Positions 29,466-59,308 of a stretch of DNA of 64,000 bases are shown in pieces. The stretch comes from Bacillota bacterium (GTDB lineage Bacteria; Bacillota; Clostridia; Acetivibrionales; JAMNXU01), in contig JAMNXU010000013.1 of assembly GCA_023623175.1 (NCBI GenBank), forward strand, positions 3,933 to 67,932. The letters are read 5' to 3'. Position 1 is the stretch's first letter. Every line of letters starts with the position of its first letter. The notes under the pieces were generated by a model that saw nothing but the letters and a program-made list of their open reading frames with translations, made no database searches and was not told the DNA's origin. Made by a program: the position numbers and the translations under genes.

Positions 29466-29522
29466 GTTAAACCCCCTAAAAAATTCCAAGCAAGCCACAT
29501 AAAGAGAATAAGTCTCTTTATT

Positions 29523-36727: not shown

Positions 36728-36850
36728 AAATAACAATGTATTATCCTTAAAAGAAATCAGTGCAATCATGAAAGGCCCAAATCTGCGTAAAATCTGAAAA
36801 GCACTGTTATGATATTTTTGTAAACTTTAGCTTAGCGAAGACAGCTGAAT

Positions 36851-36949
36851 CGCCGGGATGCAGAGCCGGGATATGCATCGTCGGGATACAGAGCCGGAAT
36901 TGGCATCCCCGGGATGTACTGCCGGTTCAGCAAAAATCTGTTCTGAAAC
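36851..36949. repeat. Degenerate 11-16-nt tandem arrays echoing the 3' end of the beta-helix gene
   Basis: cgccgggatgcaga / gccgggatatgcatc / gtcgggatacaga / gccggaattggcatcc / ccgggatgtact / gccggttcagc echo the in-gene gccggatataaccgaag. The stop region is itself agaatagatac / agaataggtttc / agaacagattttt on the minus strand. Confidence 0.6.
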
Positions 36950-38569
36950 CTATTCTGTATCTATTCTCGTATTGCCGGATATAACCGAAGCGGTGGCTCC
37001 ATCCCTTGATACAATCGCGCCGGTTGTTTTATTGTTCGTTATTTGGACTCCCGTTGTTGCAGGCCACCTGTACTCGATGGAATTAGGATAATTGTTGAGG
37101 GTGTAGCAGGTATTATTGTCAATGATTGTGTCCGGAGCATTTTCTATACCAATTCCGACATCCCTTACCGTCTCTACGAAATTGTTTCTTATGATACATC
37201 CAGGATTCAGGTTGCCGGTGCCCATTCCAATGTATATTCCCCTCTCACTGTTCAATACCGTACAGCCTTCAATGACCACGCCGGTAGACCCGTTCCAGAA
37301 GTGTATCGCAGGTTCGGTCATCGCACCGCCCGGATTCACTATATTTTTAACAACACAGTTCCGTACCGTCCAGTTCCTGCACTTGTGACCGTCTATCGCA
37401 CAGGTATACCAATTTGCAACCTTTCCTGCGCTGAATTCAAACAGGCAGTTCTCAACAAGCCCGTTGTCCGAATAGGTGGATGAATAGCTTGGATTGGCGT
37501 CAGCGGACACTTTCAGCATCTGCTCGTATATATCCATAAAACGTACATTGCGAATTACGATGCCATCGGTATCATTTTCACCCGTTACCTGGATGCCGTG
37601 CCACCGGACATTCTTCAGTGTCATGTTTTCGCAGGTAAAGTTGTCAGCGTTTACCCAGAAAATGTGGCGTACCTTTGCCTGGGGAGACATTGCATCCCCT
37701 GTAAGTATGACATTATCCCTGTCCCTGGGAGAATTGCCGCGCACAGTTATATTTTCCGCTCTGATTGCAAAGGCTTCAGCTCCGATAGTGCTGAGGTCAT
37801 AGGTTCCATTGCTGCAGATGATCTCCATATGCCCGCCCACCGTGTTTGCAGTACTTATGGAGTAGCTCAGTTCCTGGACATTGCTGACATACACCGTCGA
37901 GTCAATATAAGTTACAACCAGCTCGGGATGTATGTCCTTATTGGGATTGTCCCTTGACGCAAAAACTGCATATGCCGGGCTGTCACCGGGTTTTTGTATA
38001 ATTTCCATTCCATAATTGGCATGAATACCGTCATACCAGGATCTCACCAAACCTGTGACATCCCATTCAACCCAACCTGTGGAATTAATGGTTAAAGAAC
38101 TGCTGACTTCAGGGGCATAGTCGCCTCCGGGTGTGGTCCAGTTATTTGTACCGTCACAGGTAGTCCATGTAACTCCCTTGTGATGTTTGTATTTCCAGTT
38201 ACCATTACCCTCCACCCATGAACGGGTAACCCGGTAAATCTCATTGGTGACTGTGCCGTTAACTTCAAGGCAATTCATCCTGAGCCTGGCCTCTTTGATT
38301 CTCTTGCCTTCAGGTATGGAAGACAGGTCGAACTCAATGAGAATTCTCTTTTCCTGTGTACCAGATACACAGGTTTGAATTTTTTTATCCTTTCCCCCGT
38401 TATCAAGACCCGACACGATCTGCGCGTCGGCAACGGGCTTCAAGGTAACTGTGGATTCTTCAATCACATTATCGGCTGTGACGGGAAAAAGGGTTGGAGT
38501 TGCAAAAAGGTTCACAGCAATCGCCATCAGCAAAATCATGTTAATTTTCACGAATAACTTTTTGTTCAT
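36950..38569 (-). CDS. Secreted protein: signal peptide + DNRLRE-type domain + right-handed parallel beta-helix domain (paralog 1)
   Basis: Signal peptide MNKKLFVKINMILLMAIAVNLFA. The N-domain carries ILIEFDLSSIP..ARLRM..IYRVTRSWVEGNGNWKY. The C-terminal ~330 aa beta-helix core is shared with 40792..41892 and 46242..47384. Confidence 0.65.
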   Translation of the reverse strand: MNKKLFVKINMILLMAIAVNLFATPTLFPVTADNVIEESTVTLKPVADAQIVSGLDNGGKDKKIQTCVSGTQEKRILIEFDLSSIPEGKRIKEARLRMNCLEVNGTVTNEIYRVTRSWVEGNGNWKYKHHKGVTWTTCDGTNNWTTPGGDYAPEVSSSLTINSTGWVEWDVTGLVRSWYDGIHANYGMEIIQKPGDSPAYAVFASRDNPNKDIHPELVVTYIDSTVYVSNVQELSYSISTANTVGGHMEIICSNGTYDLSTIGAEAFAIRAENITVRGNSPRDRDNVILTGDAMSPQAKVRHIFWVNADNFTCENMTLKNVRWHGIQVTGENDTDGIVIRNVRFMDIYEQMLKVSADANPSYSSTYSDNGLVENCLFEFSAGKVANWYTCAIDGHKCRNWTVRNCVVKNIVNPGGAMTEPAIHFWNGSTGVVIEGCTVLNSERGIYIGMGTGNLNPGCIIRNNFVETVRDVGIGIENAPDTIIDNNTCYTLNNYPNSIEYRWPATTGVQITNNKTTGAIVSRDGATASVISGNTRIDTE

Positions 38570-38678
38570 AACAATTCTCCTTTCCATTTATATCTCTTCA
38601 TTGATGTAACATTGATCCCCGGGCACAGGCCACTTTTGTACGGGCCACTTGGTATGCCTGGGCTTTCAGCCCTGCAAG

Positions 38679-38719
38679 GGCCATTAAATGATATGCATGA
38701 AGCATATCATTTAATGGCC
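38679..38719. other. Perfect 18-bp inverted repeat (5-nt loop) in the intercistronic spacer
   Basis: GGCCATTAAATGATATGC-atgaa-GCATATCATTTAATGGCC. Lies 17 nt downstream of the stop of 38736..40685 and ~90 nt upstream of the next gene's start. No T-tract. Confidence 0.6.
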
Positions 38720-38735
38720 ATATCATCATTTTTGC

Positions 38736-40685
38736 TTACCTGTATATGACAACCAGCTGCGGACGCAATGAAGGATTGGAAACCTCCCTTGATCTAAACC
38801 ATGCATAGGCATGTTTGTTGCTGGAAGGCTGCATCAGTATCATGCCGTAATTGGGATACGTGCCGTTATACCAGGAATTGACCAGGTCAGTAATATTCCA
38901 TTCCTTCCACCCGGTAGTACTGAATGTCAGTGAAGCGCTGACAGTTGAAGAAAAATCCCCGCCTGCCGCTGTCCAGTTGTTTGTGCCGTTATAGGTTGCC
39001 CAGGAGACACCGTTTGTAGCGTTATATCTCCAATCACCCGTACCTTCGACCCACGAACGCGTAACACGATGGATCTCGCTGTTGATTGTATTGTAAATAG
39101 TATCGCAGTACAGCCTTAACTTGGCCTCAATTATTGTTTTACCTGCGGGAATCGATGAAAGATCGAATCTCAACAGCGAACGTCTTTCAGGCTGTCCTGA
39201 AACATATACCTGAAGTTCAGAATCAGCTCCGCCGTTTCCCATACCGATTATAATCTGTGCATCGGCCACGGCATTAAGGGTTACAGTTACTGGCGATGAT
39301 GTCGGTGTTGGCACCGGACTTGGAGTTACTGTCGGCGTAGGAGTTATTGTGGGTGTGGGCGTTGGAGTCGGGGTTGGGGTTGGTGTAGGAGTAGAAGTCG
39401 GTGTCTGTGAAGGAACTGTGGATGCTGTAGGAGTCGGCGGAGGCGATCCGCTCACGTTGATCTGATAAACGTCAATACGGGGTTCTTCACCAAAGTTCTG
39501 GGCAATATACAGCCTTCCGGTCATGGGGTCGTACCCGGCTCCGCGGATGCCGGCGCTTCCGTCTGAATTCATTTCAGTAAGCTGCCAGACAGCATAAGGC
39601 TGTACTTCCCAGGATTGCTTCGTGCCATTTTTTACTGCGAGCAGGTCATTCGCGTCGTAGGCCCATACCTGGTGTACATAGGGATACGCGTGCCATCCCT
39701 TGGACGAGTCTGTGGGGTCATAACACCATACACCGCCCTCGGTAGGCTGGCCGTCAAGGGCCGGATTACTTGTACCAGGTCCATATCCCACTTTCCCTAT
39801 ACCATGTCTCCCTATGAAAAGTACACTTCGGCTTCCGGGCGGAAAAGCAATTCCTCCTATCCGGGTAGTTCCGTTAAAGAGAGGATTCTGGGCAGAGATA
39901 TCAGCCAGCGGATGATCAACAGGATAATAAAGAAGCTTAGTCCCCGGAACAGGGTTTTTCACTCCAACATCATCCGGGTCAAAAACAGCACAGGCAGGTC
40001 CACTTGAAGTAGTACTGATAACGTTGAGACAGCCGTTTCCTGTAAGTGCGGGTCCTCCCAGGAGTGACTGCCATTCCGTAGGAATTAGTGTCATCCATCC
40101 GCCAAGGGCACGTGCAGGCATTCCACCGGCGCTCATCGGATAAAAATGTGAAAAATCGTTGCTTACTGACAGGTCAAATCCGGAAACACCGAGTGATTTT
40201 GTTTGGTCCGGACTGTAGAATGTGGATGAACCAACAATTAGCCTCCCATTATAGGGCAGCATCCCGTAAATTACAGCGTCATATCCAATTTCATCCAGAT
40301 TCCCGTCCGTTATATCATAAAAATTCTGGAGCACATTCGCCATGGGAAGATTATTCCAATTCTGGCTTTTTACAAATGTCGAAGGGACTTCCACCTGGGC
40401 TACATAGCCGGGATACCAGGCATGTCCCTCCATAAAGAGGGTATGTTTGCCTGTGGACGGATCATAATATGGAGTAAGGCCGCTTCCGCCATAACCAAAC
40501 CTGGAACCGCCATAGGTCCCTGTCGGCAGGCGGAAAGCTCCGAGATATACGAAGTCCGAGCTCTGAACCAACGGCAGGGTGGTCGGATCATCCGCCCTGA
40601 CAGGCGGAGAAGGAAACACAAATGCCGTGATCAGAAATACCAACGCCAACAATAAACGCAGTGGCCTATGAATTTTTCTTTTCAT
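38736..40685 (-). CDS. Secreted protein: unplaced ~420 aa N-domain + Pro/Thr linker + C-terminal DNRLRE-type domain
   Basis: Signal peptide MKRKIHRPLRLLLALVFLITAFVFPSPPVRA. Linker PPPTPTASTVPSQTPTSTPTPTPTPTPTPTPTITPTPTVTPSPVPTPTSSP. The C-terminal domain carries SLLRFDLSSIP..AKLRLY..IHRVTRSWVEGTGDWRY. Start set at MKRKIH (AAGGAG RBS). Confidence 0.6.
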   Translation of the reverse strand: MKRKIHRPLRLLLALVFLITAFVFPSPPVRADDPTTLPLVQSSDFVYLGAFRLPTGTYGGSRFGYGGSGLTPYYDPSTGKHTLFMEGHAWYPGYVAQVEVPSTFVKSQNWNNLPMANVLQNFYDITDGNLDEIGYDAVIYGMLPYNGRLIVGSSTFYSPDQTKSLGVSGFDLSVSNDFSHFYPMSAGGMPARALGGWMTLIPTEWQSLLGGPALTGNGCLNVISTTSSGPACAVFDPDDVGVKNPVPGTKLLYYPVDHPLADISAQNPLFNGTTRIGGIAFPPGSRSVLFIGRHGIGKVGYGPGTSNPALDGQPTEGGVWCYDPTDSSKGWHAYPYVHQVWAYDANDLLAVKNGTKQSWEVQPYAVWQLTEMNSDGSAGIRGAGYDPMTGRLYIAQNFGEEPRIDVYQINVSGSPPPTPTASTVPSQTPTSTPTPTPTPTPTPTPTITPTPTVTPSPVPTPTSSPVTVTLNAVADAQIIIGMGNGGADSELQVYVSGQPERRSLLRFDLSSIPAGKTIIEAKLRLYCDTIYNTINSEIHRVTRSWVEGTGDWRYNATNGVSWATYNGTNNWTAAGGDFSSTVSASLTFSTTGWKEWNITDLVNSWYNGTYPNYGMILMQPSSNKHAYAWFRSREVSNPSLRPQLVVIYR

Positions 40686-40791
40686 ATTTGCCATCTCCTT
40701 TTTTAAATTTTTCATTTTCATTTTTCAACTTGTCTCTTCTCTCTGTCTCATTTCGCAATGTATTAAGTTCGCAATTGAATTGCCCTCTTTA

Positions 40792-41892
40792 TTACGGAAG
40801 CGGTATTTTGATATTGCCCGATACTTGTGAAGCGGTGGCGCCATCCCTGGATACAATATTGCCGGTTGTTTTGTTATTGGTTATCTTTGTACCTGTTGTT
40901 CCGGGCCACCTGTACTCAATGGAGTTCGGATAATTGTACGTATAGCAGGTATTATTATCAATCACGTTATTTGGAGCATTCTCTATGCCAATCCCGACAT
41001 CCCTTATCGTGGTAACCGTATTGTTTTTGATGGTGCAGTTGGAATTGATACTGTCGGTGCCCATTCCTATATAAATGCCTCTTTCGCTGTTTAATATGGT
41101 GCACCCTTCTATGGTAATACCCGTCGAGCCGTTCCAGAAATGTATTGCAGGCTCTGTTAAGGTTCCGCCGGGATTTTTGATATCTTTTACAATGGTATTG
41201 CGTACCGTCCAGTTTTTGCAATGGTGCGCGTCTATTCCGCAGGTATACCAGTTAGGTGCCTGTCCCGCACTGTATTCAAAAATGCAGTCCTCTATGAGGC
41301 CATTGTCAGAGTATGTGCTTGACTGGCTCGGATTGGCATCAGCAGACACTTTCAGCATCTGCTCATATGTGTCCATGAAGCGTACATTCCGGATCACCGG
41401 GGCATCGGCGTCATCTTCCCCGCAAATTTGTATTGCGTGCCAGCGCACATATTTTAACGTCATGTTTTCACACCTGAAATTGTCGCCGGTCACCCTGAAT
41501 ATTAGACGAACATTTGCATTGGGGGACATGGCGTCGCCCCTGAGAATAACATAATCCCTGTCGCCGGGCGTGTTCCCGCGTATTGTAATGTTGTCGGCAG
41601 TAATGTTAAAATGGGTAAGGCCAATGGAATTGAGGTTGTAGGTGCCGTTATTGCAAATAATTTCAACATTGCCGTCGCTTGCATTGGCATTGTTGATTGC
41701 GTTTCTTAATTGGGTTATATTGCTCACGTACACAGTAGAGGCACGGGTGGGCACATTTTCAGGCGAAAGCGAAGAATTGCCGATACCTGCTGCAGCAACA
41801 CATGTTCTTTCTGTGGAAAAATTAGATCCCAACATGGTAAAGACGGCAAACAGTAAAATCACACTCAGTTTTTTAACAGCTTTTTTGTTCAT
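40792..41892 (-). CDS. Secreted right-handed beta-helix protein (paralog 2, signal peptide only)
   Basis: Signal peptide MNKKAVKKLSVILLFAVFTMLG. The core shares RNVRFMDTYEQMLKVSADANPS, NWTVRN, TEPAIHFWNGSTG, NSERGIYIGMGT, YPNSIEYRWP and SRDGATAS with paralog 1. Confidence 0.65.
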   Translation of the reverse strand: MNKKAVKKLSVILLFAVFTMLGSNFSTERTCVAAAGIGNSSLSPENVPTRASTVYVSNITQLRNAINNANASDGNVEIICNNGTYNLNSIGLTHFNITADNITIRGNTPGDRDYVILRGDAMSPNANVRLIFRVTGDNFRCENMTLKYVRWHAIQICGEDDADAPVIRNVRFMDTYEQMLKVSADANPSQSSTYSDNGLIEDCIFEYSAGQAPNWYTCGIDAHHCKNWTVRNTIVKDIKNPGGTLTEPAIHFWNGSTGITIEGCTILNSERGIYIGMGTDSINSNCTIKNNTVTTIRDVGIGIENAPNNVIDNNTCYTYNYPNSIEYRWPGTTGTKITNNKTTGNIVSRDGATASQVSGNIKIPLP

Positions 41893-42532
41893 AACCATTC
41901 TCCTTTTCTCAAATATTTAATTTTTCTTTAAGCTTTTAATTTGAAAATGCTATTCCGTCTCAGTCGGCCCGGTTGAAATATTAATAAACAAATGAAATAG
42001 TAAAATTACGTAGTATTCCCTTCTCCGATATCACCTCCTGAATATTGGTATGCGGGGAATAAAATGCACCTCCTTTACGGTTTATTGGTTTATAAGTTAT
42101 GGTTTATAAGTTTATAATGTTAATAATATTGATAAAAAGCTGATAAATCCCTTATTGAGCCTGGATTGCGCGCCTGAAGCTGAGAATGATCATGAACACA
42201 ATGGTGCAAAAGATTAGCAATTAGAATTCGGCAAGAGAATGATATGCAACTGTCAAATTAATGAGTAACGGCAAGTTAAATTGTCAGATGATGTTTGATA
42301 ATGAAATTTGTCTATATCGATATTATACCACTATTTTGATTTTTGTTTATTATTTGGGAAATATTCAATAACCATTTGGGAAATAAAGGGCGGCTCTTCT
42401 GTCCGGGACAGGAATAAAGGAATCAGTCAAGAGAATGATTTGTATTTACATTCCGGACATTTATCTTACGATATCTTCCGAAACATAATTCCACATTTGT
42501 GTCTAACAGTCTTCAAAAGCGATGTCGTCACT

Positions 42533-44086
42533 TCATTTCTCTTTCCCGGCCATCCATTCATCCAGTTGGGTTTGTATTTCCTCCACCATCGGGTCGGTTA
42601 TTTTTTTCTGCGCGCTAAGAAAATCATCTATTTCTCCCGGTGTCAACTCCCCGTTCAGAACACTTGACTCAAACCTGCTACGGCTGTTGAAATCAAATTC
42701 GGGAAAACGTTCGCGAATTTTGACAATATCGATGGTAAAGCCAGTATGAGGGAAATATTTTGACCTGCTTTCGATGTATTGTATCCTTGCCTTTAGCTGG
42801 TCTTTATCCTGAAAATCCAGGTTATTGTTCACGATAAACCATGACCTGTGTATAACATTGTATATGCAGCTTTCATCGTAACCCTCGCGGGCAATAAGCT
42901 TTACCCGGTCCTTTTTGTCCAGCTTGTAATCCTTGCCTTTAATGCCGTACATAAATAGCCTGTATGCCTCTTTGTCGGTCATAAGCCAGTCCAGGAAAGC
43001 CAGGGCCCTTTCGGTGTTATTGGAATGGGAATTGAATATGACAATATTCCCGGGATCGAATGTTCTCTGGGTAATGCTTTCCGGATACAGGTCAAACTCG
43101 GCAAATTTGACCTGGACGCCCGATTCCTGCCTTATCTGTTCGCTAATTTTTTCGCCGTCGCCTTTATAACCAATTATTGAAGCATATTCCCGGAGCTTTA
43201 CGCCCTGGTTGCTAATAAATCCCCTGCTCCTCCATCTTCGAAGGGTCTCCAGGGCATTTCTGTACTCAGGGGTCTGCTTCCAGTCCATGAGTTTTATCGC
43301 GGGGTCGTCGGGGCGGTATACAAGTTCAATCTGGTTGTTGACCGCAATGGCATAACCGCCGGCCTCTGCAAACATTTCCAAAATAGATGGAGTTTTCGAA
43401 TAGAACGGCGTCAATCTTGTGGGAATCAATTCCGGTTTATTCTTTTTAACCAGTTCCAGAAAATTTTCGAACTCTTCGTAGCTGCTTATATTCTTTATCC
43501 TGAACTCTTCCAGCAGGTCTTCCCTGATTATGGCATGTAATCTCCTGGTGTCAGGCAGGTTATATGAAGGAACGGCTAAAATTTTGCCGTTAAAGGATAC
43601 TGTATCAAGCTCTTCCCTGGCAAACAGCCTGAAATAATTGGGAGCATTCCCAGCAAACAACTCTGTTATGTCTTTTATAAAGCCCGATTCGTAAAGGGTT
43701 TTTAAATCAAAAAATGACTTGCTGTTTTCATTTATAAACAACATATCACAAACGTTTCCATTTAATGCATACCAGGTATCGGGATCTACTTCGGCCACCC
43801 ATCCGCCGTCTTCCTTCTGAACCACCCTGAGGTTTGTTATTTCAATGTTAACATTCAGTTTTTGCTCCGCTTTCCTGTTAAGCTCCTTCAAAACTTCATC
43901 CAGCAACGTACTGCCATACACCGAAACGTACTGTGGAAAGTGAGGCGGCATAAATATATTGAGCGTAACTTTTTCCGGCTTTTTACCGTTTGTCCATTCT
44001 TCATTATTTGCTGCTTCCCTGGAACATGCAGTAATTTGGGTTAACAGCATGCCAACAATTAAGATTGTTAAAAACATTCTCTTCAT
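42533..44086 (-). CDS. Large extracellular solute-binding lipoprotein (ABC family-1 / LplA-like), orphan
   Basis: Lipobox LLTQITAC. 517 aa. The overall layout matches the ~500 aa sugar-binding lipoproteins of Firmicutes. No permease or ATPase gene is nearby. Confidence 0.65.
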   Translation of the reverse strand: MKRMFLTILIVGMLLTQITACSREAANNEEWTNGKKPEKVTLNIFMPPHFPQYVSVYGSTLLDEVLKELNRKAEQKLNVNIEITNLRVVQKEDGGWVAEVDPDTWYALNGNVCDMLFINENSKSFFDLKTLYESGFIKDITELFAGNAPNYFRLFAREELDTVSFNGKILAVPSYNLPDTRRLHAIIREDLLEEFRIKNISSYEEFENFLELVKKNKPELIPTRLTPFYSKTPSILEMFAEAGGYAIAVNNQIELVYRPDDPAIKLMDWKQTPEYRNALETLRRWRSRGFISNQGVKLREYASIIGYKGDGEKISEQIRQESGVQVKFAEFDLYPESITQRTFDPGNIVIFNSHSNNTERALAFLDWLMTDKEAYRLFMYGIKGKDYKLDKKDRVKLIAREGYDESCIYNVIHRSWFIVNNNLDFQDKDQLKARIQYIESRSKYFPHTGFTIDIVKIRERFPEFDFNSRSRFESSVLNGELTPGEIDDFLSAQKKITDPMVEEIQTQLDEWMAGKEK

Positions 44087-44133
44087 TTTTGATCTACTCC
44101 ATGTTTAATAACTCATGTTAATAACTCATGTCA

Positions 44134-45730
44134 TCAGTTCAGGTTTTTATTCACTGTTCTCCACTCGTCAAGCCGCTTTTGAATTTCCTGCAAAATCGGG
44201 TCGGTTATTTTTTTCTGCTCCTTTAAAAATTCATCCAGTTCCTCGAGTGTCTTGTTTCCTGCAACATAGGATCTCTCAAACCGTCTCCGGTCAGCACTGC
44301 TGAAATTGCTATAGCTCCGAAGAATACTGTTTATATCGATTCTAAAAGCCAGATGCGGCATATATCTCGATTTGCTCTCGACATACCTGCTTTTTTCCCT
44401 GAAAAGTTCTTCATCCTGGATATCCAGTTTGTTATTTACAAGGCTCCAGGATTTGTGAATGTTGAAATATATGTCGTTTTCCGTGTAACCCTCGGGAATA
44501 AGCAGCTTTACGTGATTTTTCTCATCAAGGGTGTAATCTTTTCCCTGGATCCCGTATACAAACAAATTGTAAGCTTCGCGGTCGGTCATGAGCCAGTCGA
44601 CGAAAGCCAGGGCCTTTTCGGTCTTTTCGGATTTTGAACTGAACACGACTATATTCCCCGGATCAAACGTCCTTGTTGTTATTAAATCCGGGTACAGTTC
44701 AAATTCCACAAATTCAGCCGGTTTGCCCGTTTCCTCCATTACAAGGTTGCTGATTTTTTCCGAATCACCCTTATAACTGATAATGGACGCATATTCCGAC
44801 CACTTTCTTTTATTCATGGACACGTCGGCATATCCTTTGCGCCTCCAATTCATAAAAGTCTCCACGCCCTTTTTGTATTCCGGCGTTTGTTTCCAGTCCA
44901 AAAGCTTAATGTCGGGATCATCGGTGCGATAAACAATTTCGAGGTCGCCGGATGACAGAATGGTATATCCTGCCGCCTCTGCAAATATATCCAAAACTGA
45001 GGGACCCGGCAGGTCAACACTTGTCGGCGCCGGTTTGAAGGGTGTTATCACCGTGGGTACCAGTTCCGGTTTGTTTTTTCTGACTTTGTCAAGGAGCTCA
45101 AATTCACTGAAACTTCCAATGCTGCTGATTTTAAGTTCTTCCGGCACGTCTTTCCTGATTATGGCCTGCAGTCTTTTTGTTTCAGGCAGGCTATAGGACG
45201 GAACGGCAAGGATTTTACCCTTGTATGATACGGTCTCAAGTTCTTCCCTGGAAAACAGGCTGAAATAATTGGGAGCGTTTTCAATAAATAATTGGGTTAT
45301 ATCTTTTATCTTTCCTTCTTCATAAAGGCTTTCCAGGTCAAACATCGCTCTGCTGTCCGCATTTATGGAACAACATGTCGCAATCGATTTTATCAAGAGC
45401 TTCCCCGGTATCTCGCCTGATTACAGCAGCCGAACCGTCTGCGCCGCTGACCAGGTCCAAATTGGCTATATTGATGTGGATATTCATCTTCTTTTCCGCT
45501 TTTTTGTTTAATTCCTCCAACACTTCCTTCAGCAGCGTATAAGCATACTGGGACAAATAATATGGCGGTTGCACAGGCATGTAAATATTGAGCGTAACTA
45601 TTTTTGACCTTTTGCCTGCCGCTTCCTCTTCACCTGAAGTTTTCCGGGAACATGCTCCAAGCTGGACCGCCAGGAGAACGATGAACATGAAAAATAACAA
45701 ATTTTTAATTTCCTTTTCATAAACTTTCAT
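44134..45730 (-). pseudogene. Paralog of the solute-binding lipoprotein, disrupted by a single-nt insertion
   Basis: ORFs 45338..45730 (signal peptide/lipobox LAVQLGAC...DCDMLFH) and 44134..45396 (..INADSRAMFDLESLYEEGKIKDITQLF..) are collinear with 42533..44086 (CDMLFINENSKSFFDLKTLYESGFIKDITELF). The frames join if one G of GG at 45367-45368 (+ strand) is removed. Confidence 0.75.
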
Positions 45731-45969: not shown

Positions 45970-46154
45970 TTGAATTTAGAACAAAGGAATTTTTTTCATG
46001 TCCTGCTGCCCTGAATTTGTGACACACAAACCGTCCACGTATCCCCATGTGTACCACACCCTGAATTTGGGACAAAGGAACCGTCCCCGTGTCCCACTTT
46101 GAAAGAACCGTCCCCGTGTCCCACTTTGAGACAGAGGAACCGTCCCCGTGTCCC
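45970..46154. repeat. Tandem array of five GGGACA-family units in the 'aaccgtcccc' orientation
   Basis: The units show increasing decay toward the 5' side: cctgaatttgggacaaaggaaccgtccccgtgtccc, ctttgaaagaaccgtccccgtgtccc and ctttgagacagaggaaccgtccccgtgtccc, plus degenerate cctgaatttgtgacacacaaaccgtccacgtatcccc and ttgaatttagaacaaaggaattttt.. Confidence 0.85.
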
Positions 46155-46241: not shown

Positions 46242-47384
46242 TTAATCATTAAGTATCATATTGTCCTCGACCTTTGCAGCCGTTGCGCCGTCCCTTGCCA
46301 CAATTTTACCGTTTGTCCTGTTACCGGTGATTACGACGCCGGTAGTATCGGGCCAGCGGTATTCGATTGAGTTGGGATAGCCGGCCCCCGTGCGGCACTC
46401 GTTGCCTTCAATCACGGTATTCGGCGCGTTTTCTGCGGCTATGCTCACATCCCTGTTCGTCTCCACCCTGTTGTTGCGAATTACGGAGTCGGGACAGATA
46501 GTCCCGGTTCCCATGCCTACCATTATGCCTCTTTCACAGTTGGTTATCGTATTGCCTTCTATGAGAATGCCCGAAGAATTGTTCCAGAAATGTATCGCTG
46601 GTTCAGTCATATCCCCGCCGGGATTTACAATATCCTTTATTACATTATTCCTGACTGTCCAGTTTCTGCAGCGATGGCCGTCAATGGCGCAGGTATAATA
46701 TCCCGGGGCTTTGCCGGCGCTGTATTCAAATATGCAGTCCTCGATCAGGCCGTCGTCGGAATATATCTCAACATCCTCGGCGCCCCTGTAGGCCGAAACC
46801 TTTAACATCTGCTCGTATGTGTCCATGAAGCGCACATTGCGGACCACTATGCCGTCGGCATCCACTTCGCCGGCCACCTGGATCGCATGATACCGTACAT
46901 TTTTAAGCGTCATGTTTTCACAGGTAAAATTGTCTGCCCTGACCAGGAAAATATGCGTTACATTGGCCGTTTCAGACATGGCGTCGCCCGTGAGGATAAC
47001 CTTGTCCCTGCTCTCTTTCGATTCTCCCCTTATCGTAATGTTGTCGGCCTCAATAATAAAACCGCCAATATATATGGAATCCAGGTCATATGTACCGTTT
47101 GCCAGGACAATCTCCACGTTTCCGCCTTCCCTGTTGGCCTTTTCAATGGCTTCCATGAGCTCTTCGACTTTGCTGACACGAACAACGGGTTTTGTCGAGT
47201 AATGTTCAGGTTTTACCGGTGTATCCATGGCAGCCTCCCCATTTTTAGAATCTCCCGAAGTATTGCCGAAAATTCCGTCAAGCTTTCCGTTTAGCCCCAA
47301 TACAACTGCGGTAATAACAACCGCCACCACGACCAGCGCAATACCCGCATAAATCAGGTATTTCTTTGAATTCTTCCCGCTCAA
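46242..47384 (-). CDS. Membrane-anchored right-handed beta-helix protein (paralog 3)
   Basis: N-terminal single TM helix (YLIYAGIALVVVAVVITAVVLGL) instead of a cleavable signal peptide. The core shares RNVRFMDTYEQMLKVSA, NWTVRN, TEPAIHFWN, YPNSIEYRWP and RDGATA. Probable TTG start with an AAAGGAG RBS. Confidence 0.6.
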   Translation of the reverse strand: MSGKNSKKYLIYAGIALVVVAVVITAVVLGLNGKLDGIFGNTSGDSKNGEAAMDTPVKPEHYSTKPVVRVSKVEELMEAIEKANREGGNVEIVLANGTYDLDSIYIGGFIIEADNITIRGESKESRDKVILTGDAMSETANVTHIFLVRADNFTCENMTLKNVRYHAIQVAGEVDADGIVVRNVRFMDTYEQMLKVSAYRGAEDVEIYSDDGLIEDCIFEYSAGKAPGYYTCAIDGHRCRNWTVRNNVIKDIVNPGGDMTEPAIHFWNNSSGILIEGNTITNCERGIMVGMGTGTICPDSVIRNNRVETNRDVSIAAENAPNTVIEGNECRTGAGYPNSIEYRWPDTTGVVITGNRTNGKIVARDGATAAKVEDNMILND

Positions 47385-47583: not shown

Positions 47584-47604
47584 GAAGGGGCTTTGTATCC
47601 CCCT

Positions 47605-47661
47605 GGGACACGGGGACGGTTCTTCTATCCCCCTGGGACACGGGGACGGTTCTTCTGTCCC
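47605..47661. repeat. Two tandem GGGACA-family units in the 'ggggacggtt' orientation
   Basis: gggacacggggacggttcttctatcccc and gggacacggggacggttcttctgtccc, each preceded by ccccct. Confidence 0.9.
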
Positions 47662-47770: not shown

Positions 47771-47940
47771 GCGACAAGAAAACAATCCCTGTGTCATATT
47801 CTGCTATGAATTTGGGACAAAAGAACCGCTCCCTTGTCCCGTACCCTGCTACGAATTTGGGACAAGAGAACCGTCCCCGTGTCCCAAATTGGGACAAGAG
47901 AACCGTCCCCGTGTCCCAAGGGAACCGTGTACCAGGTCCC
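47771..47940. repeat. Array of 3 full plus 2 degenerate GGGACA-family units, orientation opposite to 47605-47661
   Basis: gggacaaaagaaccgctcccttgtccc (47814-47840) and gggacaagagaaccgtccccgtgtccc (47859-47885 and 47891-47917). Two units are preceded by ctgctaYgaattt. The array abuts the hydG stop codon (47942). Confidence 0.9.
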
Positions 47941-49369: not shown

Positions 49370-49457
49370 TTTATTACCCCTTTCAAAAATAAATTTGATT
49401 GCAATTTAACAGAATAAATCCGTTTGTTCTTTTGAATAATTCAATACCGGTCACTAA

Positions 49458-49537
49458 GGCTGACTCCGATTATTTCAGGCTAATCCCGGTTATTTCAGGC
49501 TGATTCCGGTTATTCCAGCCCGAGTCCGGTTATTTCA
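49458..49537. repeat. Four 20-nt tandem units copying the hydF 3' end, stop codon included
   Basis: ggctgactccgattatttca / ggctaatcccggttatttca / ggctgattccggttattcca / gcccgagtccggttatttca, then ggctgatttt (coding). The fourth unit contains the real hydF stop (49530-49532). Confidence 0.85.
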
Positions 49538-50780
49538 GGCTGATTTTATCCAAAATGCCGGACAGGTAGGCAATCGCGACGCCGTAATTGGTCATTGGCA
49601 CTTTCTGCCTCGATGCCCTGTCTATTCGTGAAAGCATGTACCTGCGGTTAAACATGCACGCTCCGCAATGGATGATCAAATCATATGATGACAGGTCCTC
49701 GGGGAAATCATTGCCGCTCACCACGTCCACAGTAAGTCCCGGTCCTACCTTGCGGCGCAGCATGGCGGGAATCTTTTCCCTGCCTATGTCCTCGCTGAGC
49801 GGCGCATGGGTGCAGGCTTCAGCTATAAGAACCCGCGAATTTTCCGTAAGGCTTTCAATGGCAGCGGCGCTTTCCGCGTAGTAATCAATATCGCCCTTGT
49901 ATCCGGCATACAGCACCGAGAAGGATGTAAGCCTGCTTTCGGCGGGTTTCTTTTCATACACGGTTTTAAAAACCTGGGAGTCCGTTATTATGACTGCCGG
50001 CGGCTCTTTCAGCGCGCTCAATGCTTCGTCGATCTTTTCCGCCGTTGTGCATATCACCATGCATTTTCTGTCCAGCAACTCCCTGATCGTCTGGACCTGC
50101 GGAAGAATCAGCCTGCCCTTTGGCGCCTGTATGTCCTGGGGCATGACGAGCAACACGGTATCGCCGTCGCTGACCACATTGCCCGTTATTAACGGGTTCT
50201 CATAATCTTCGGGCAGGTTCTCCAGTATAGCCTTGTAAATCCGGGAAACGACATCCTTATCCCGCGCGCTGACCGCGACAGGTCTGATGCCCGTACCCTT
50301 CTCAACAAGATCCTGCGCTGCTTTTACTTCGCTTGAACCATTCAGCATGTCGCACTTGTTCAACACCGTGATTACGGGAATATTCATCCTTCTAAATTCG
50401 GCGATCCATTTTTTCTCAATATCGAAAACGGAACTCTCCATACCGGTATCAGGCTTATTGCTAACTGGAACCAGTTTGCTCCCGTCGAATACTACGAGCG
50501 CAACATCGGTTTTAAGCGCAGCTTCCCGCGTCTTTTTCATCCTGAGCCCGCCTATCTCGCCTTCATCATCAAACCCGGCCGTGTCAATGAGCACGCACGG
50601 TCCTATCGGATGGATTTCCATCGACTTGTACACGGGATCAGTGGTTGTGCCGGCAATATCAGAAACCAGCGCCGTTTCATGCCCGGTGATCGCGTTGATC
50701 AGCGAAGACTTCCCGCTGTTTCTTCTGCCGAAAATGCCTATGTGCAACCGGTTGCTCCTGGGTGTGTTATTCAGACTCAT
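49530..50780 (-). CDS. hydF: [FeFe]-hydrogenase maturation GTPase HydF
   Basis: P-loop GRRNSGKSS, TTDPV, and the C-terminal cluster motif CTHAP...HCGACMFNR. Confidence 0.92.
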   Translation of the reverse strand: MSLNNTPRSNRLHIGIFGRRNSGKSSLINAITGHETALVSDIAGTTTDPVYKSMEIHPIGPCVLIDTAGFDDEGEIGGLRMKKTREAALKTDVALVVFDGSKLVPVSNKPDTGMESSVFDIEKKWIAEFRRMNIPVITVLNKCDMLNGSSEVKAAQDLVEKGTGIRPVAVSARDKDVVSRIYKAILENLPEDYENPLITGNVVSDGDTVLLVMPQDIQAPKGRLILPQVQTIRELLDRKCMVICTTAEKIDEALSALKEPPAVIITDSQVFKTVYEKKPAESRLTSFSVLYAGYKGDIDYYAESAAAIESLTENSRVLIAEACTHAPLSEDIGREKIPAMLRRKVGPGLTVDVVSGNDFPEDLSSYDLIIHCGACMFNRRYMLSRIDRASRQKVPMTNYGVAIAYLSGILDKISLK

Positions 50781-51910
50781 TGTACCGCCTCCTTCACAGC
50801 CTTCTTTACAGGCTCCTGCACTGCTTCCTTCACAAAATCCCCGCGGTCCACCACGAGCTCATAGCCTATTCCCTTCATGCGGCTTTGCAGGCAATGGCGG
50901 CATTCTGCCGCTTCTTCGCCAGTACAGATCTTATTGTCATAGAGCGAGTACTTCTTCCTGACTCCCACGGGCGAAAGATTGGGCATTACCACGTTGGCGC
51001 CGGCCAATATTCCCAGTTCCCGGCCCCTGGGATGGACAGTGCCGAGGGCCGTCGTCGCCGGAATCAGGGCATTGGGCAGCATCAGCCGCAGGATTCCTAT
51101 GAGAAACAGCGTCATTTGGGCTTCGCCGGCCGGGAACGACGCAAAGGGCGTGTCATGATGCGGTATAAACGGGCCTATTCCGACCATCTCCGGCTCCAGT
51201 TCCTTTATAAACAACAGGTCCTCCACAATATTGTCAACGGTCTGCCAGGGCGATCCAACCATGAAGCCAGCACCTACCTGGTATCCGAGTTTTTTCAGGT
51301 CATACAGGCAGCGCCTACGGTTTTCATAACTCATTTCCCCGGGATGCAGCCTGTAATAGTGCTCCCTGTTTGCCGTTTCATGCCTCAGGAGATACCTGTC
51401 CGCTCCCGCTTCGCGGTATTTTTTATATTGCTCGTAGGTTCGCTCGCCGATAGAAAGCGTTATAGCGCAGTCGGGATACGAACGCCTTATTGAAGAAATT
51501 ATGTCAACAAGCATGTCATCGCTGTACCACGGGTCCTCGCCGCCCTGCAGGACGAAGGTCCTGAACCCGAGTTCGTATCCCCCGGCACAGCATTCCAATA
51601 TTTCATCCTTGCCCAGGCGGTAGCGTTCCGCGGCCGTGTTGCCTCTTCTTATGCCGCAGTAAAAACAGTTGTTTTTACAGTGGTTCGTAAATTCTATCAA
51701 ACCCCGCGTATAAATTCTTTTACCGAAAAACGAGTCCGCCACGGCCCTTGATTTAGAAAACAGGTACTGCGCGTCTTCGTCGGTGAAATCCGTCAGCAGC
51801 TCTGCAAACTCCCGGGCGTCCAGGCATCTTTCCCTGTGCAGTTTATCTATGAGACCGCGTTTGTCCGTTCCTGTGCACACTTTCTTCTTTCCTTTCAGGA
51901 TAGATTTCAT
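50777..51910 (-). CDS. hydE: [FeFe]-hydrogenase maturase HydE (radical SAM)
   Basis: CKNNCFYCGIRRGN radical-SAM motif and biotin-synthase-like fold motifs. 4-nt overlap with hydF. Confidence 0.9.
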   Translation of the reverse strand: MKSILKGKKKVCTGTDKRGLIDKLHRERCLDAREFAELLTDFTDEDAQYLFSKSRAVADSFFGKRIYTRGLIEFTNHCKNNCFYCGIRRGNTAAERYRLGKDEILECCAGGYELGFRTFVLQGGEDPWYSDDMLVDIISSIRRSYPDCAITLSIGERTYEQYKKYREAGADRYLLRHETANREHYYRLHPGEMSYENRRRCLYDLKKLGYQVGAGFMVGSPWQTVDNIVEDLLFIKELEPEMVGIGPFIPHHDTPFASFPAGEAQMTLFLIGILRLMLPNALIPATTALGTVHPRGRELGILAGANVVMPNLSPVGVRKKYSLYDNKICTGEEAAECRHCLQSRMKGIGYELVVDRGDFVKEAVQEPVKKAVKEAVQ

Positions 51911-51962
51911 GCTCTGTTTGTTTCACCTTTCCGAATAAATTTCATGCTCCATTTGTTTAAAC

Positions 51963-52220
51963 TCAATCATTGAAAAACATCCTGGAATAAACAGCCTTGG
52001 CCGACACGGCCGGAATCATTCCGAGCTTCCCCGATAATGCGCTGATTACGTCGTTGGGAGCGTCCATCACAATGCAGATTATGGATATACCCCGTTTGCG
52101 GTACGGTATTCCCATGCGTCCGATTATGTAATCCCGGTATTCATGAAGAGTGCTGTTCACCTTTTCCACGGAATCAGGATTTTCAACAATAATGCTGACA
52201 GCGGCAATTCTTGTTTCCAA
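51963..52220 (-). CDS. TM1266-family putative iron-only hydrogenase system regulator
   Basis: 85 aa, METRIAAVSIIVENPDSVEKVNSTLHEYRDYIIGRMGIPYRKRGISIICIVMDAPNDVISALSGKLG. This is the small ACT-like protein typically found with hydEFG. TTG start behind an AGGAGGTGA RBS. Confidence 0.8.
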   Translation of the reverse strand: METRIAAVSIIVENPDSVEKVNSTLHEYRDYIIGRMGIPYRKRGISIICIVMDAPNDVISALSGKLGMIPAVSAKAVYSRMFFND

Positions 52221-52471
52221 AAACCTTCACCTCCTAAAAAATCCGCTTCAACCGAAAAAATCTGCTTCAGCCAAAATTCCCTGTTCAACCAAAATTCCTT
52301 GGGCGAGTATTATTGAGCAAAATTCAATTACAAGGCAAAATTCCCGTGTCGGAATACTAAGCCTGAGGTCAAAACTAATGAGTCAAAACTCCCTCGTCAA
52401 AAATTACCGGATCAAAATAACTAAAGAAACAAAGTAAAATCCCCGGAACAAAATTCCGGTCTAAACCCCCG
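52221..52471. repeat. About 12 degenerate 14-22-nt repeats with core GGAATTTTG (minus strand)
   Basis: Minus strand: ccggaattttgttcc, gggattttactttg, agttattttgatcc, taatttttgacgag, agttttgactcatt, agttttgacctcag, gggaattttgccttg, ttgaattttgctc, aaggaattttggttgaac, agggaattttggctgaagc, agattttttcggttgaagc, ggattttttaggagg. The array starts at the terminator tail GGGGATTTTTGTTTTGG. Confidence 0.6.
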
Positions 52472-52510
52472 ACCAAAACAAAAATCCCCGCCCGGGGAAA
52501 AGGCAGGGAT
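52472..52510 (-). terminator. Intrinsic terminator-like hairpin inside the hyd operon leader
   Basis: Minus strand: ATCCCTGCC-ttttccccg-GGCGGGGAT (9 bp, one G-U pair), followed by TTTTTGTTTTGG. Confidence 0.6.
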
Positions 52511-52868
52511 TGTGTTATATGATAAACATAACTTAAATGCGGCAAGTTATCTTGTATACAGTGGGCTCCAACGGACTGCCCGCCTGCACAAGATGAGCTG
52601 TGGCACTTAACGGGCTTTTGTCATCAATTCGTCATTTAAGGTAAGAATTGATCTTTTAAATAACATTTGCCTTGCCCGTATACAACAATCCGCATTCAAA
52701 TTATGACAAGGACCATATCCTATAAACACTATATGCGCTTGCCTTCCCACTCGGGACGTACCCTTGTGAATCAGGGCAATTTCAGGTTTTCAATTTCGGG
52801 CTCGATGTAAGGCGCAGTCCCTTGCATCTTGCCCAAAGCAAATTCGTTAACTTTTTAACACTCTTTCC
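52511..52868 (-). ncRNA. Candidate structured leader / cis-regulatory RNA upstream of the regulator-hydEFG operon (class unknown)
   Basis: About 360 nt with no ORF of 60 aa or more on either strand. Bounded by a promoter-like element and the terminator. Nested long-range complementarity: 52536-52542 with 52690-52696, and 52552-52559 with 52678-52685. An 8-bp hairpin pairs 52623-52630 with 52645-52652. Confidence 0.35.
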
Positions 52869-52874
52869 TATAAA

Positions 52875-52903
52875 AGTATACTGCAGTCAGCGCAGTTTTT
52901 CAA
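52875..52903 (-). promoter_or_regulatory. Sigma-A-type promoter for the hyd leader
   Basis: Minus strand: TTGAAA, 17 nt, TATACT. Confidence 0.45.
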
Positions 52904-52959
52904 TACCTTTTGTTAAAAAATTGTCTATTTATTTTGGGATAATATTTTCTGAAAATTCC

Positions 52960-53317
52960 CTGTCCGGCCCTTAATTGATCTCTACATCTGTACTGTACTG
53001 TTCTGTTTTGTTTTTATTTGTTATTATCTGTTTTTATTTGTTATTATCTGTTTTTATTCAATTTGTTATCTTTCTTTTTTCTTTATCTATCCTCTTTTTC
53101 TTAATTTGTTATCTATCTTTTTTCTTTTCTTTATCTATTTCTTTTCCTTGACTATTTCTTTACTTTTTCTAATTCTTTTCTTTTTCTAATTCTCTTCTTT
53201 ATCTTTTCTTTTCTTTGACTATTTCTTCTCTTTACTATTTCTTTTCTTTTACTATTTCTTTTTCCATTTCTTTTCTTAATCCTTTTTTTACCTGTTTTTC
53301 TTCATTTATTTCTTTTT
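52960..53317. repeat. ~360-nt purine-rich (minus strand) low-complexity tract of degenerate repeats after the ntpD stop
   Basis: The minus strand continues the ntpD end (aagatgaagaaaagaaataaataa) as gaaataaatgaagaaaaacagg.., aagaaaagaaatggaaaaagaaatagtaaaagaaaagaaatagtaaagagaagaaatagtcaaagaaaag.. Stop codons occur in every frame. Confidence 0.75.
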
Positions 53318-53932
53318 TTATTTATTTCTTTTCTTCATCTTTTTGATCTTGAAAAAGTCCTCCCTTTCCTTTTCTTCGAGGACCTCCTCTATATATTTGA
53401 CTTGCTCCCTGTATCTCGGTATCAGTATATGCTGAAGCGCATTTGTTCTTTTACTTGTTTTTTCAATCTCCCGCGCCAGCTTAAAAATTGAATTTTCAAT
53501 TTCGGCCAGCTCATACAGTTTATACTTAACTTCGTTGAATTTCAGCCGCGCCTCATCCAGGGATGTATTGGTGTTGAAAAAGCCATAGGAAGGCTTTATT
53601 TCCTGCCTTTTATATTTAACCACGGGAATATCCACGCCCATGATGCTCTTTAACAGCACCTCGAAATTCTCATCATTGGGAATACTGTTGGTGATGTCGT
53701 CCACGTCCCTTATTCCCAGCGTGAGATTCGCTACCTGGAGCGCATTGTACGCTTCCTCGAATATCCCGTATATCTCATTTTGAATATTCTTCGCCCTGTC
53801 AACCATGTCCATCATTTCGCGGATGAGGACGTTCCTCTTTTTATCCAGGAGTTCATAGCCGCTCCTGGAAAGGGCAAGCGCGGTTTTGGCTTTTATAAGG
53901 TTGGCTTTTGTGGGCGCAGTCAGCTGAGACAT
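53318..53932 (-). CDS. ntpD: V-type ATPase subunit D
   Basis: 204 aa. MSQLTAPTKANLIKAKTALALSRSGYELLDKKRNVLIREMM is the canonical V/A-ATPase D N-terminus. Confidence 0.9.
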   Translation of the reverse strand: MSQLTAPTKANLIKAKTALALSRSGYELLDKKRNVLIREMMDMVDRAKNIQNEIYGIFEEAYNALQVANLTLGIRDVDDITNSIPNDENFEVLLKSIMGVDIPVVKYKRQEIKPSYGFFNTNTSLDEARLKFNEVKYKLYELAEIENSIFKLAREIEKTSKRTNALQHILIPRYREQVKYIEEVLEEKEREDFFKIKKMKKRNK

Positions 53933-54332
53933 TACTTATACACCTTGCTTCTGCAATTTGCTCAATTATACCTGTTCTTATATCTGTTTTATATTATCGT
54001 TTTATACAATTTTGATTTTATAAAATTTCTTTATGTTCATTTTTTATATAATCTGTTTTTCATATATAATCTGTTTTTCTTATATAATCTGCTTTTCTTT
54101 AAATAAACAATCTGCTTTTCCTCATATAATTCTTCATATAATTTGATTTTCTTTATATAATTCGCTTTTTTATATATTCTGCTTTTCTTTACATAATCCG
54201 TTTTTCTTGTTTTATATAATTTGTGTTTTTAGGGAGGCCGCTCTCTCCATATATTACATCATGTCCTGCACCATGGTTATATCCGTTTTTTGCATCTTTT
54301 TATCTTCATGTCTTGCATCGTGTTTTACCATT
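53933..54332. repeat. 400-nt untranslated spacer inside the V-ATPase operon, made of ~12 degenerate ~18-nt repeats
   Basis: Minus-strand units: aagaaaagcagaatatata, aaaaagcgaattatata, aagaaaatcaaattatatg, aggaaaagcagattgtttattta, aagaaaagcagattatata, agaaaaacagattatatat, gaaaaacagattatata. These resemble the ntpB end cagaagtattataaaggcaaacag. Confidence 0.75.
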
Positions 54333-55718: not shown

Positions 55719-55839
55719 AGACAAAGTCCCTCGTTCTGAAACTTATTAATCTTCATGTTTTAATGCTCAATTGTTTCTAAGGTTTATGCTTCCCGCCCAG
55801 TCATCATCTGCCCTGGTTAATCCTTATTCCCAGCCGCGC

Positions 55840-59067: not shown

Positions 59068-59308
59068 AAAGATTCATCCTTTCTTTTACCTGCATTTAAA
59101 TATGTGAAATACTGCATAAATATTTGTAATATTGCAATTAGCAATGTTGCAATTTAAATGCTGCATAATGTCTTTTTCGCTGCCGTCGCTTAAACTGCCT
59201 GTCCCCGTCCTGTCCTTGTCAATTCAGGTAACCATTCTATTGTTTCATATGCCCTGACAATTTTCACAGCATTTTCCGTCCTTGAGCCAACCACTTGATT
59301 TTGTATGC

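Follow-up and report, generated by a model that had tools for sequence, protein, structure and literature searches.

Gene-tail repeats between hydF and hydG

We analyzed a 64-kb stretch of contig JAMNXU010000013.1 (assembly GCA_023623175.1; the whole stretch is hereafter called the window), in which the spacer between hydF and hydG is built of tandem copies of the 3′ end of hydF. The hydF product is the [FeFe]-hydrogenase maturation GTPase (Pfam domains HydF_tetramer, HydF_dimer, and MMR_HSR1). The window genes are ordinary chromosomal ones, including PEPCK, purF/purL, kbl/tdh, AcrB, hydEFG, a V-type ATPase (V-ATPase; ntp) operon, and an [FeFe]-hydrogenase. An original prediction, made from the sequence without database searches, proposed that this spacer consists of decaying copies of the gene end and that the same construction recurs, with locus-specific sequences, at nine other loci. 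The coordinates of the arrays and related features are given in Table 1.

On the minus strand, the 3′ end of hydF reads ...ATCAGCCTGAAATAA / ...AAAATCAGCCTGAAATAA. The 20-nucleotide (nt) repeat unit takes in the final 15 nt of hydF and roughly 5 nt of the adjoining spacer, and the 80 nt that follow the gene are four more 20-nt units (CCGGACTCGGGCTGGAATAA, CCGGAATCAGCCTGAAATAA, CCGGGATTAGCCTGAAATAA, and TCGGAGTCAGCCTTAGTGAC). Tandem Repeats Finder (TRF) reported the array at 49457-49545 (period 20, 4.4 copies, 79% matches, score 122). With relaxed scoring, the array reached 139, compared with a maximum of 72 over 200 dinucleotide shuffles (0/200), and a gapped search with a 25-nt junction segment gave a summed score of 92 versus a shuffle maximum of 33 (0/100). 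The proposed origin of the spacer from the hydF end was thus borne out, with some corrections of detail. The tail is repeated as claimed, but in four further units rather than three. TAA, stated to be present in every copy, is kept in three of them and replaced by TAG and TGA in the fourth. Along the array, the units match the gene tail at 12, 16, 14, and 10 of 20 positions, and the claimed progressive divergence was not seen.

An intrinsic terminator, which needs a GC-rich hairpin followed by a U-tract, was considered for the hydF array and failed. The RNA fold was not significant (z = -1.3) and had no stable centroid hairpin, and no terminator-like sites were found in 49444-49529.

Recurrence at other gene ends

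Window spacers were examined by relaxed TRF with 200 dinucleotide shuffles per spacer and by a junction-segment test, i.e., a gapped search for copies of the gene-end segment with 100 shuffles. The gapped test was needed because ungapped matching of 18-nt tails missed much of the signal at DUF1624 and folT. Ten of the 38 spacers scored above all 200 of their shuffles; two of these hold another, dispersed element rather than gene-tail arrays. Besides hydF, the arrays unmatched by any of 200 shuffles were those of kbl, DUF1624/HGSNAT, DUF4153 (labeled DUF4173 in the original prediction; Pfam gives DUF4153), beta-helix, ntpD, and ntpB. Equal scores were therefore not obtained from shuffled controls at hydF or at these six other named loci.

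Degenerate arrays were significant at 8 of the 9 other loci named in the original prediction, and fewer of them resembled the gene tail. Tail similarity was significant in the junction test (0/100 shuffles) at hydF, kbl, DUF1624/HGSNAT, folT, and ntpD, was marginal at ntpB, and was not significant in that test at DUF4153, the amidohydrolase (6/100 shuffles), or beta-helix. In total, tail-derived copies were significant at 5 to 6 of 36 genes. The recurrence of the gene-tail construction thus holds at about six loci, not ten.

At kbl, relaxed TRF gave 115 versus a shuffle maximum of 64 (13714-13829; 0/200). The kbl tail had three ungapped matches of at least 12/18, and the units agree with it at 15 to 19 of 19 to 24 positions. 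The DUF1624/HGSNAT array was reported by TRF at 17248-17335 (0/200), with the pattern running on to 17466; it yielded four copies in the junction test (0/100) and contains a perfect 14-nt duplication (17327-17354). The DUF4153 array (TRF score 98; relaxed 131, 0/200) is a clear repeat for which the junction test did not demonstrate a gene-tail origin. The folT array was borderline in relaxed TRF (period 17, 3.0 copies), with 2 of 200 shuffles reaching its score. The amidohydrolase locus was weak, having a 10-nt unit present twice (TRF score 33) that overlaps a bidirectional terminator hairpin. The beta-helix gene has a 28-nt array (36846-36925; 0/200) and, as the original prediction had noted, an 11-nt stutter within its last codons.

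The ntpD and ntpB arrays lie in the ntp operon. The ntpD array (53001-53342; 0/200) shows higher-order periods of 17, 33, and 67 nt in TRF, a perfect 20-nt repeat of 2.5 copies at its distal end (53009-53058), and 13 ungapped matches to the gene tail; its margin in the junction test was thin because the sequence is of low complexity. The ntpB array (54040-54208) scored 119 in TRF and 168 with relaxed scoring (0/200), and its best tail match, the distal GAACAGGTATAAT, was reached by 1 of 100 shuffles. Across the window, unit sequences and periods (11 to 35 nt) differ from locus to locus, with no common motif, and swapped gene tails scored at background level in ungapped matching, in agreement with the proposed locus specificity. 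True terminators adjoin some arrays and lie outside them (20005-20284 and 52511-52483).

Two further observations concern the ntpB-ntpD spacer. A 25-codon open reading frame (ORF; 54254-54331, minus strand) begins one base past the ntpB stop codon (TAA-A-ATG). In relatives, ntpD starts 2 nt past ntpB, and the ORF may be what is left of that ancestral start or a decoy of it. On the plus strand, antisense to the ntp operon, the array carries five sigma-70-like hexamer pairs (TTxATA, 16 to 18 nt, TATAAT; 54043-54197), because TATAAT belongs to the repeat unit. These pairs may be meaningless, the region-wide total being near the shuffle expectation.

TABLE 1 Repeat arrays and related features of the window, with junction lengths in the window and in relatives
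Feature	Position	Strand	Description	Junction in window	Junction in relatives
hydF	49530-50780	-	[FeFe]-hydrogenase maturation GTPase; source of repeated tail		
hydF tail array, hydF-hydG spacer	49444-49549	-	From TRF, unit table, and junction test	160 nt	54-58 nt, no repeat
kbl tail array	13714-13830	-	Five ~21-nt units resembling GAAAGAACTGGGGATAGGTTAA, each closing in TTAA or TAA		
DUF1624/HGSNAT_cat array	17248-17466	-	~23-nt units ATTAAATAGCAnnGGCAnATCG; spans stop codon, fills convergent spacer; Pfam PF07786		
DUF4153 array	20165-20275	-	21-nt unit CTGCAATTnCTGTTGAnAATG, 5 copies; between DUF4153 gene and its terminator		
folT tail duplication	28911-28966	-	GAAATGATATAACTACT including TGA stop, repeated once; internal ATATAA stutter		
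beta-helix gene end	36846-36972	-	11-nt stutter in last codons (36950-36972); separate 28-nt array, 2.9 copies, farther downstream		
ntpD tail array	52960-53344	-	~13 units of 17 nt AAAGAAAAGAAATAG		
ntpB-ntpD spacer	53933-54332	-	~9 units of 18 nt AGCAGATTATATAAGAAA; distal copy of ntpB tail GAACAGGTATAAT	400 nt	2 nt (L161, L162)
ntpA-ntpB spacer	55725-55839	-	Weak repeat signal: TRF 46, reached by 9/200 shuffles	115 nt	32-39 nt
ntpI-ntpK spacer	59068-59308	-	20-nt repeat, 2 copies (59097-59136), and more decayed repeats (TRF)	241 nt	22-23 nt
Terminator-derived array	52221-52500	-	GGAATTTTG-type units, i.e., leader terminator 3′ arm plus T-tract, before the TM1266-like gene	260 nt from terminator T-tract to ribosome-binding site	10-30 nt
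TM1266/hydE junction duplication	51891-51958	-	35-nt tandem duplication including ATG and first codons; start-side example	52 nt to first ATG; 109 nt to first conserved HydE residue	Genes overlap (TGATG)
Dispersed GAACCGTCCCCGTGTCCC family (GGGACA-type)	3582-3612, 13640-13700, 27899-27924, 46028-46154, 47596-47661, 47823-47919, 63109-63173				

Enrichment relative to control loci

The window was compared with 160 loci (2.39 Mb) around hydF homologues. Genes with a stop-spanning array made up 20.5% of the window set (8/39) versus 3.8% of the controls (45/1,194; odds ratio, 6.6; P = 1.5e-4). Such arrays also occur in the control loci, but more rarely. Spacers with TRF scores of at least 100 numbered 8 of 40 in the window versus 20 of 647 in the first 80 control loci, and those with scores of at least 80 numbered 10 of 40 versus 4 of 100 in the closest relatives (183 kb; P = 6e-4).

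Tandem duplicates were overall 3 to 6 times commoner than in the control loci, with all age classes populated. Per 64 kb, perfect duplications with units of 10 nt or more numbered 6 versus 0.94 expected from controls (P = 4e-4), and duplicates of 90 to 99%, 80 to 89%, and 65 to 79% identity numbered 11, 19, and 8 versus 3.3, 5.3, and 2.6 expected, respectively. Besides those within the DUF1624/HGSNAT and ntpD arrays, perfect repeats lie at 8046-8075 and 42086-42112. The median gap between codirectional genes was 148 nt, compared with 39 nt in controls. Repeats covered 12.5% of noncoding versus 0.44% of coding bases in the window (~29-fold denser in spacers); the overall noncoding content (15.5%) was unremarkable. 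The pattern is real, statistically solid, and lineage specific.

Orthologous junctions in relatives

Searches of 185,579 species genomes and of JGI/ENA metagenomes yielded nearest HydF proteins of 69 to 71% identity, from Bacillota and Clostridiales metagenome-assembled genomes (MAGs) that were mostly bioreactor derived. The nearest NtpD proteins were 79 to 81% identical, and the ntp operon was compared with loci L161 and L162/L163. The order of leader terminator, TM1266-like gene, hydE, hydF, and hydG is syntenic in loci L001, L002, L008, L081, L082, and L085. Junctions in the relatives are shorter than those in the window (Table 1), and no such array follows ntpD in the ntp operons of L161 and L162/L163. 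The hydF gene of L002 closes with the identical tail ...AGCCTGAAATAA (ISLK-stop), so the tail is ancestral and the downstream copies are derived. Decayed C-terminal coding sequence is not their source, since Pfam profiles extend to the protein C termini. Judged from these comparisons, the arrays are derived insertions of local sequence that are missing from the orthologous junctions in the nearest relatives.

The construction is not unique to the window; sporadic cases are found in unrelated genomes. In L007, L011/L016, and L049/L064/L109 (several Bacteroides loci), hydF is likewise followed by copies of its stop region. In Bacteroides L049, L064, and L109, a 23-nt unit (ACTAAGGGAAGACCTCCCACCCC) is present in 2.5 to 3.5 copies directly after hydF, from 11178 (ends at 11235-11258). 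Another Bacteroides array consists of 21-nt units rich in stop codons (AAGTAGTTAGTAGATAAGTAGT) and extends across the stop of a ~500-amino-acid gene (L042, 2803-2857; L043, 7472-7525; L047, 7307-7369; L054, 7319-7373). Unlike the lineage-specific arrays of the window, the Bacteroides arrays are conserved across species.

Terminator-derived and start-side copies

According to the original prediction, the arrays always extend in the transcription-downstream direction. This is not strictly so, since the start region of hydE is copied upstream. Nor do all arrays follow stop codons, the 3′ end of a terminator being copied as well. Downstream of the leader terminator (52511-52483) that precedes the TM1266-like gene, the GGAATTTTG motif has 7 matches versus 0.49 expected (0/500 shuffles); the first unit is the terminator's own 3′ arm plus T-tract, and the last adjoins the ribosome-binding site of the next gene. 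The hydE duplication has a TRF period of 35 (1.9 copies, 84% matches) and was significant in a test for copies of the gene head (0/100 shuffles). Head-derived copies were significant at 1 to 2 of 38 genes, with hydE as the one clear case, and TRF arrays in the window lay across 8 of 39 stop codons versus 4 of 41 start codons. The stop-codon bias is real but not absolute.

The longest HydE ORF (51853-51963 region) begins with about 19 residues that have no counterpart in relatives; there, HydE begins M(L)SLVDKLHRE, with an overlap across the stop codon upstream. Compared with its counterparts in relatives, the TM1266-like protein is short by 5 to 6 residues. Both protein ends seem to have been remodeled by the junction duplication, and the true hydE start may be a GTG near 51880.

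Comparison with known systems

Among known repeats, the arrays are most readily compared with variable-number tandem repeats (VNTRs) or minisatellites: the units are 10 to 35 nt long and arranged head to tail, are concentrated in spacers and rare in genes, and include young perfect as well as old diverged copies. They differ in that the units are copies of the adjacent gene's last codons and stop, of a terminator end, or of a start region; in that several junctions are inflated within single conserved operons; and in a density 3 to 8 times that of relatives. Copy number polymorphism between strains is the defining property of VNTRs, and the present arrays are known from one genome. Self-similarity beyond chance, insertion of local sequence relative to the orthologous site, and birth of perfect copies, as expected of slippage arrays, were all found.

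Attachment sites of integrative elements consist of a single duplicated gene 3′ end, separated by the mobile element, and diversity-generating retroelements (DGRs) pair a template with a variable repeat and are accompanied by a reverse transcriptase. Both resemble the present case in having a copy of a gene 3′ end downstream of an intact gene, but here 2 to 13 copies abut. None of the 48 window proteins scanned had reverse transcriptase, transposase, or integrase domains. A DGR was ruled out by the lack of a reverse transcriptase and by multicopy units of 11 to 35 nt in place of a single adenine-variable template repeat of ~100 bp. A transposon footprint was ruled out by the lack of a transposase or integrase, the variable periods, and the locus-specific units. 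A CRISPR array was ruled out because the units abut without spacers.

Mycobacterial interspersed repetitive units (MIRUs) form one dispersed family of 40 to 100 bp at ~40 to 50 loci, with ORFs and signs of transposition (Supply et al. 1997, reviewed in PMC3184786). They are likewise intercistronic tandem units in operons whose ends overlap flanking genes and which are missing at the orthologous site in a related species; the hydF, ntpB, and ntpD arrays similarly reach across the upstream gene's stop codon. A MIRU was ruled out, as each locus has its own flank-derived unit, with periods of 11 to 35 nt that are often not multiples of three (e.g., 20 and 17) and stops in all frames. Beggiatoaceae genomes contain many intergenic direct-repeat arrays of the heptamer TAACTGA; the same motif is used throughout the genome, and this suggests a factor common to all of them (PMC4679880). 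The abundance of such arrays within one lineage is shared with the window; a shared motif is not. In organelle genomes, intergenic gaps have arisen by tandem duplication and subsequent decay of abutting genes (e.g., PMC5370444). There, too, gaps are recognizable as degraded neighboring gene ends, but whole genes were duplicated, as opposed to short multicopy arrays at many bacterial operon junctions. In a 2025 survey with DetectRepeats (PMC12418385), divergent tandem repeats were found to be enriched immediately beyond the start and stop codons of prokaryotic genes. An earlier description of multicopy, gene-tail-derived arrays that inflate bacterial operon junctions was not found in the one open-access library searched.

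Origin of the arrays

The arrays probably reflect short tandem duplication of junction sequence by slippage, filtered by selection and followed by decay, i.e., an ordinary process of unusual intensity. They do not look like a new functional element. Replication slippage would duplicate local junction sequence head to tail, and unequal recombination between copies would follow. A duplication in a spacer or across a stop codon would survive, the upstream protein being unchanged and the first copy keeping the stop. Duplications within genes would be purged, and most of those across start codons would be purged as well, given the decoy ribosome-binding sites and start codons that they create, as at hydE. 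Once two copies were present, misalignment in further rounds could enlarge the array, and point mutations and small indels would afterwards erode the copies. Operon junctions that were ancestrally tight and translationally coupled would thereby have swollen to 100 to 400 nt, given an unusually active process in this lineage or unusually weak deletion.

Several results agree with this scheme. Slippage, which the original prediction had offered as one possible cause, is supported by the derived state of the arrays, the enrichment of duplicates of all ages, and the periods of 17, 33, and 67 nt at ntpD. The accompanying statement that no established mechanism predicts the pattern was too strong, since arrays adjoining stop codons are to be expected when slipped-strand duplication is combined with purifying selection on reading frames. 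This abutment is best attributed to selection because no DNA-level process recognizes a stop codon, and where the ancestral spacer was no longer than a few bases, every duplication that was tolerated necessarily took in the gene tail. The filter is visible in the scarcity of repeats in coding sequence and in the excess of tail-derived over head-derived copies. New copies appear to be made faithfully, because perfect duplications are 6 times enriched and older arrays contain some of them (53009-53058 and 17327-17354). The higher-order periodicity of the ntpD array points to several successive block duplications. Slippage would thus be the molecular step, the arrays themselves would be neutral, and a selection filter would underlie the stop bias; this lineage would either duplicate sequence at a higher rate or have a weaker bias toward deletion.

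Some points weigh against the slippage scheme. Bacterial deletion bias should remove neutral arrays, and their persistence with copies 20 to 35% diverged is unexpected. The stop-codon bias comes from small numbers (about 6 versus 1 to 2). Nearly all window genes are on the minus strand and the GC skew is uniform, so transcription direction is inseparable from replication direction. The analysis covers 64 kb of one genome; genes of the control loci, a taxonomically mixed set, were called by heuristic choice of ORFs. Relatives closer than about 70 to 80% protein identity were not found in the genome and metagenome scans, and at such distances copy number polymorphism, timing, and duplication endpoints are invisible.

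That persistence is one reason to consider that the arrays are selected cis-elements, with duplication only their origin, which as intercistronic or 3′ untranslated spacers uncouple translation, set subunit ratios, affect mRNA stability, or serve as tandem protein-binding sites or internal promoters or terminators. They lie inside two operons whose junctions are tightly coupled in relatives, and hence they must change, indeed abolish, the ancestral translational coupling. Additionally, the terminator-derived units include small terminator-like hairpins, and TATAAT-like hexamers are repeated on the plus strand of the ntpB-ntpD array. However, units and periods that differ at each locus make a common trans-acting factor implausible, the RNA structure of the hydF array was not significant, promoter and terminator counts in the arrays were near the shuffle expectation, no relative with the same operons has arrays, and arrays also follow unrelated monocistronic genes and lie between convergent genes. 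We therefore regard such selection as unlikely. Selection as backup stop codons in all frames is scarcely credible. In its favor, a stop codon (TAA, TAG, or TGA) is kept in most units, and every frame receives stops where the period is not divisible by three. Against it, the next in-frame stop after that of hydF is 20 codons on (window median, 12; within 3 codons in 16% of genes), arrays of 100 to 400 nt far exceed the need, and terminator- and start-derived arrays cannot serve this purpose. The original prediction had listed this possibility, which the data do not support.

Each array might also stem from one or a few error-prone templated insertions, through primer realignment or template switching in break repair or fork restart, with copies imperfect from birth. 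The strong divergence of the copies beside intact flanking genes, the nonmonotonic divergence along the arrays, and the A/G transitions that make up many of the hydF copy differences would suit such an origin. It is nevertheless improbable in view of the perfect duplications inside older arrays, the presence of every identity class, and the successive block duplications indicated at ntpD. An artifact of assembly, polishing, or sequencing, also raised in the original prediction, is very improbable. The sequence does come from one contig: 7 of 10 tested proteins were exact NCBI entries from a single 171,933-bp contig in a 15-billion-protein collection, and all were singletons at 90% identity. 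However, the diverged copies hold unique k-mers and assemble unambiguously, and conserved genes are full length and free of frameshifts (HydG is 83% identical over 475 amino acids; no part of HydE, HydF, or the Ntp subunits is missing). Isolates and MAGs that were assembled independently contain similar arrays, and assembly errors would not spare coding sequence 29-fold. A synthetic or machine-generated sequence, which the stutter-like look might suggest, was ruled out by the exact NCBI entries and the conserved synteny. The source is a genuine, phylogenetically isolated, uncultured, Bacillota-like anaerobe.

We also give only a small chance to a different pair of readings. In this lineage, an unusual mutational process, perhaps dedicated or driven by conflict, might preferentially generate tandem copies at the ends of translated regions, for instance through breaks or fork stalls where ribosome-free RNA begins and their repair by template switching. 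Alternatively, the resulting spacers may have taken on a role as intercistronic insulators, uncoupling translation in the hydrogenase maturation and V-ATPase operons.

Other features of the window

At 7 intergenic sites, a dispersed 18-mer (GAACCGTCCCCGTGTCCC) is present in 14 copies, on both strands and with at most 3 mismatches (0.03 copies expected). Tandem sets of 2 to 3 copies of 27 to 32 nt are frequent, among them a perfect 32-nt repeat present twice, and the family looks like a repetitive extragenic palindrome (REP)-like element of this genome, distinct from the gene-tail arrays. Identity of the two was ruled out: 0 of the 14 copies lie inside the arrays, and one adjoins the kbl array (13671-13688).

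Upstream of the TM1266-like/hydE/hydF/hydG operon lies a conserved leader RNA (~52870-52483, minus strand) with a promoter-like site at 52903-52875 and the terminator at 52511-52483. Its core, AATTGYCCTGATTCAYRAGGGTWCGTCCCGAGTGNGAAGGCAAG, is common to the window, L001 (~8230-8540), L002, L081, and L085, and in the window leader, an additional ~200 nt separate the core from the terminator. Rfam had no family for it and gave nothing credible in 52400-52960. The leader is a candidate riboswitch or attenuator of the [FeFe]-hydrogenase maturation genes.

The only Rfam matches in the window were purine and tetrahydrofolate (THF) riboswitches, none of them at the hydF array. The THF riboswitch (29525-29644, minus strand) overlaps the first ~35 codons of the longest folT ORF (28950-29630), and the true folT start therefore lies farther downstream. 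The purine riboswitch (13496-13596, minus strand) precedes purL (9624-13310), just past the kbl array. In 42533-45730 (minus strand), three consecutive ORFs (517, 420, and 130 amino acids) have no Pfam match at an E value of ≤1e-5; they adjoin a cluster of beta-helix/CBM96/disaggregatase-repeat proteins (36950-41898 and 46242-47384).

Implications

Operon junctions in bacteria are normally tight and deletion biased, whereas here junctions of 2 to 55 nt became 100 to 400 nt by gene-end copying. Such arrays can mislead gene callers and finders of motifs or noncoding RNAs, and they are potential markers for strain typing. If the pattern is genome-wide, the organism would offer a natural system for rates of short duplication and deletion, a case of reading-frame selection shaping where repeats persist, and a test of how far conserved complexes (V-ATPase and HydEFG) tolerate the loss of translational coupling. 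Should the unusual mutational process or the insulator role prove true, this would be a bacterial genome that grows noncoding DNA by junction stutter, against the deletion bias.

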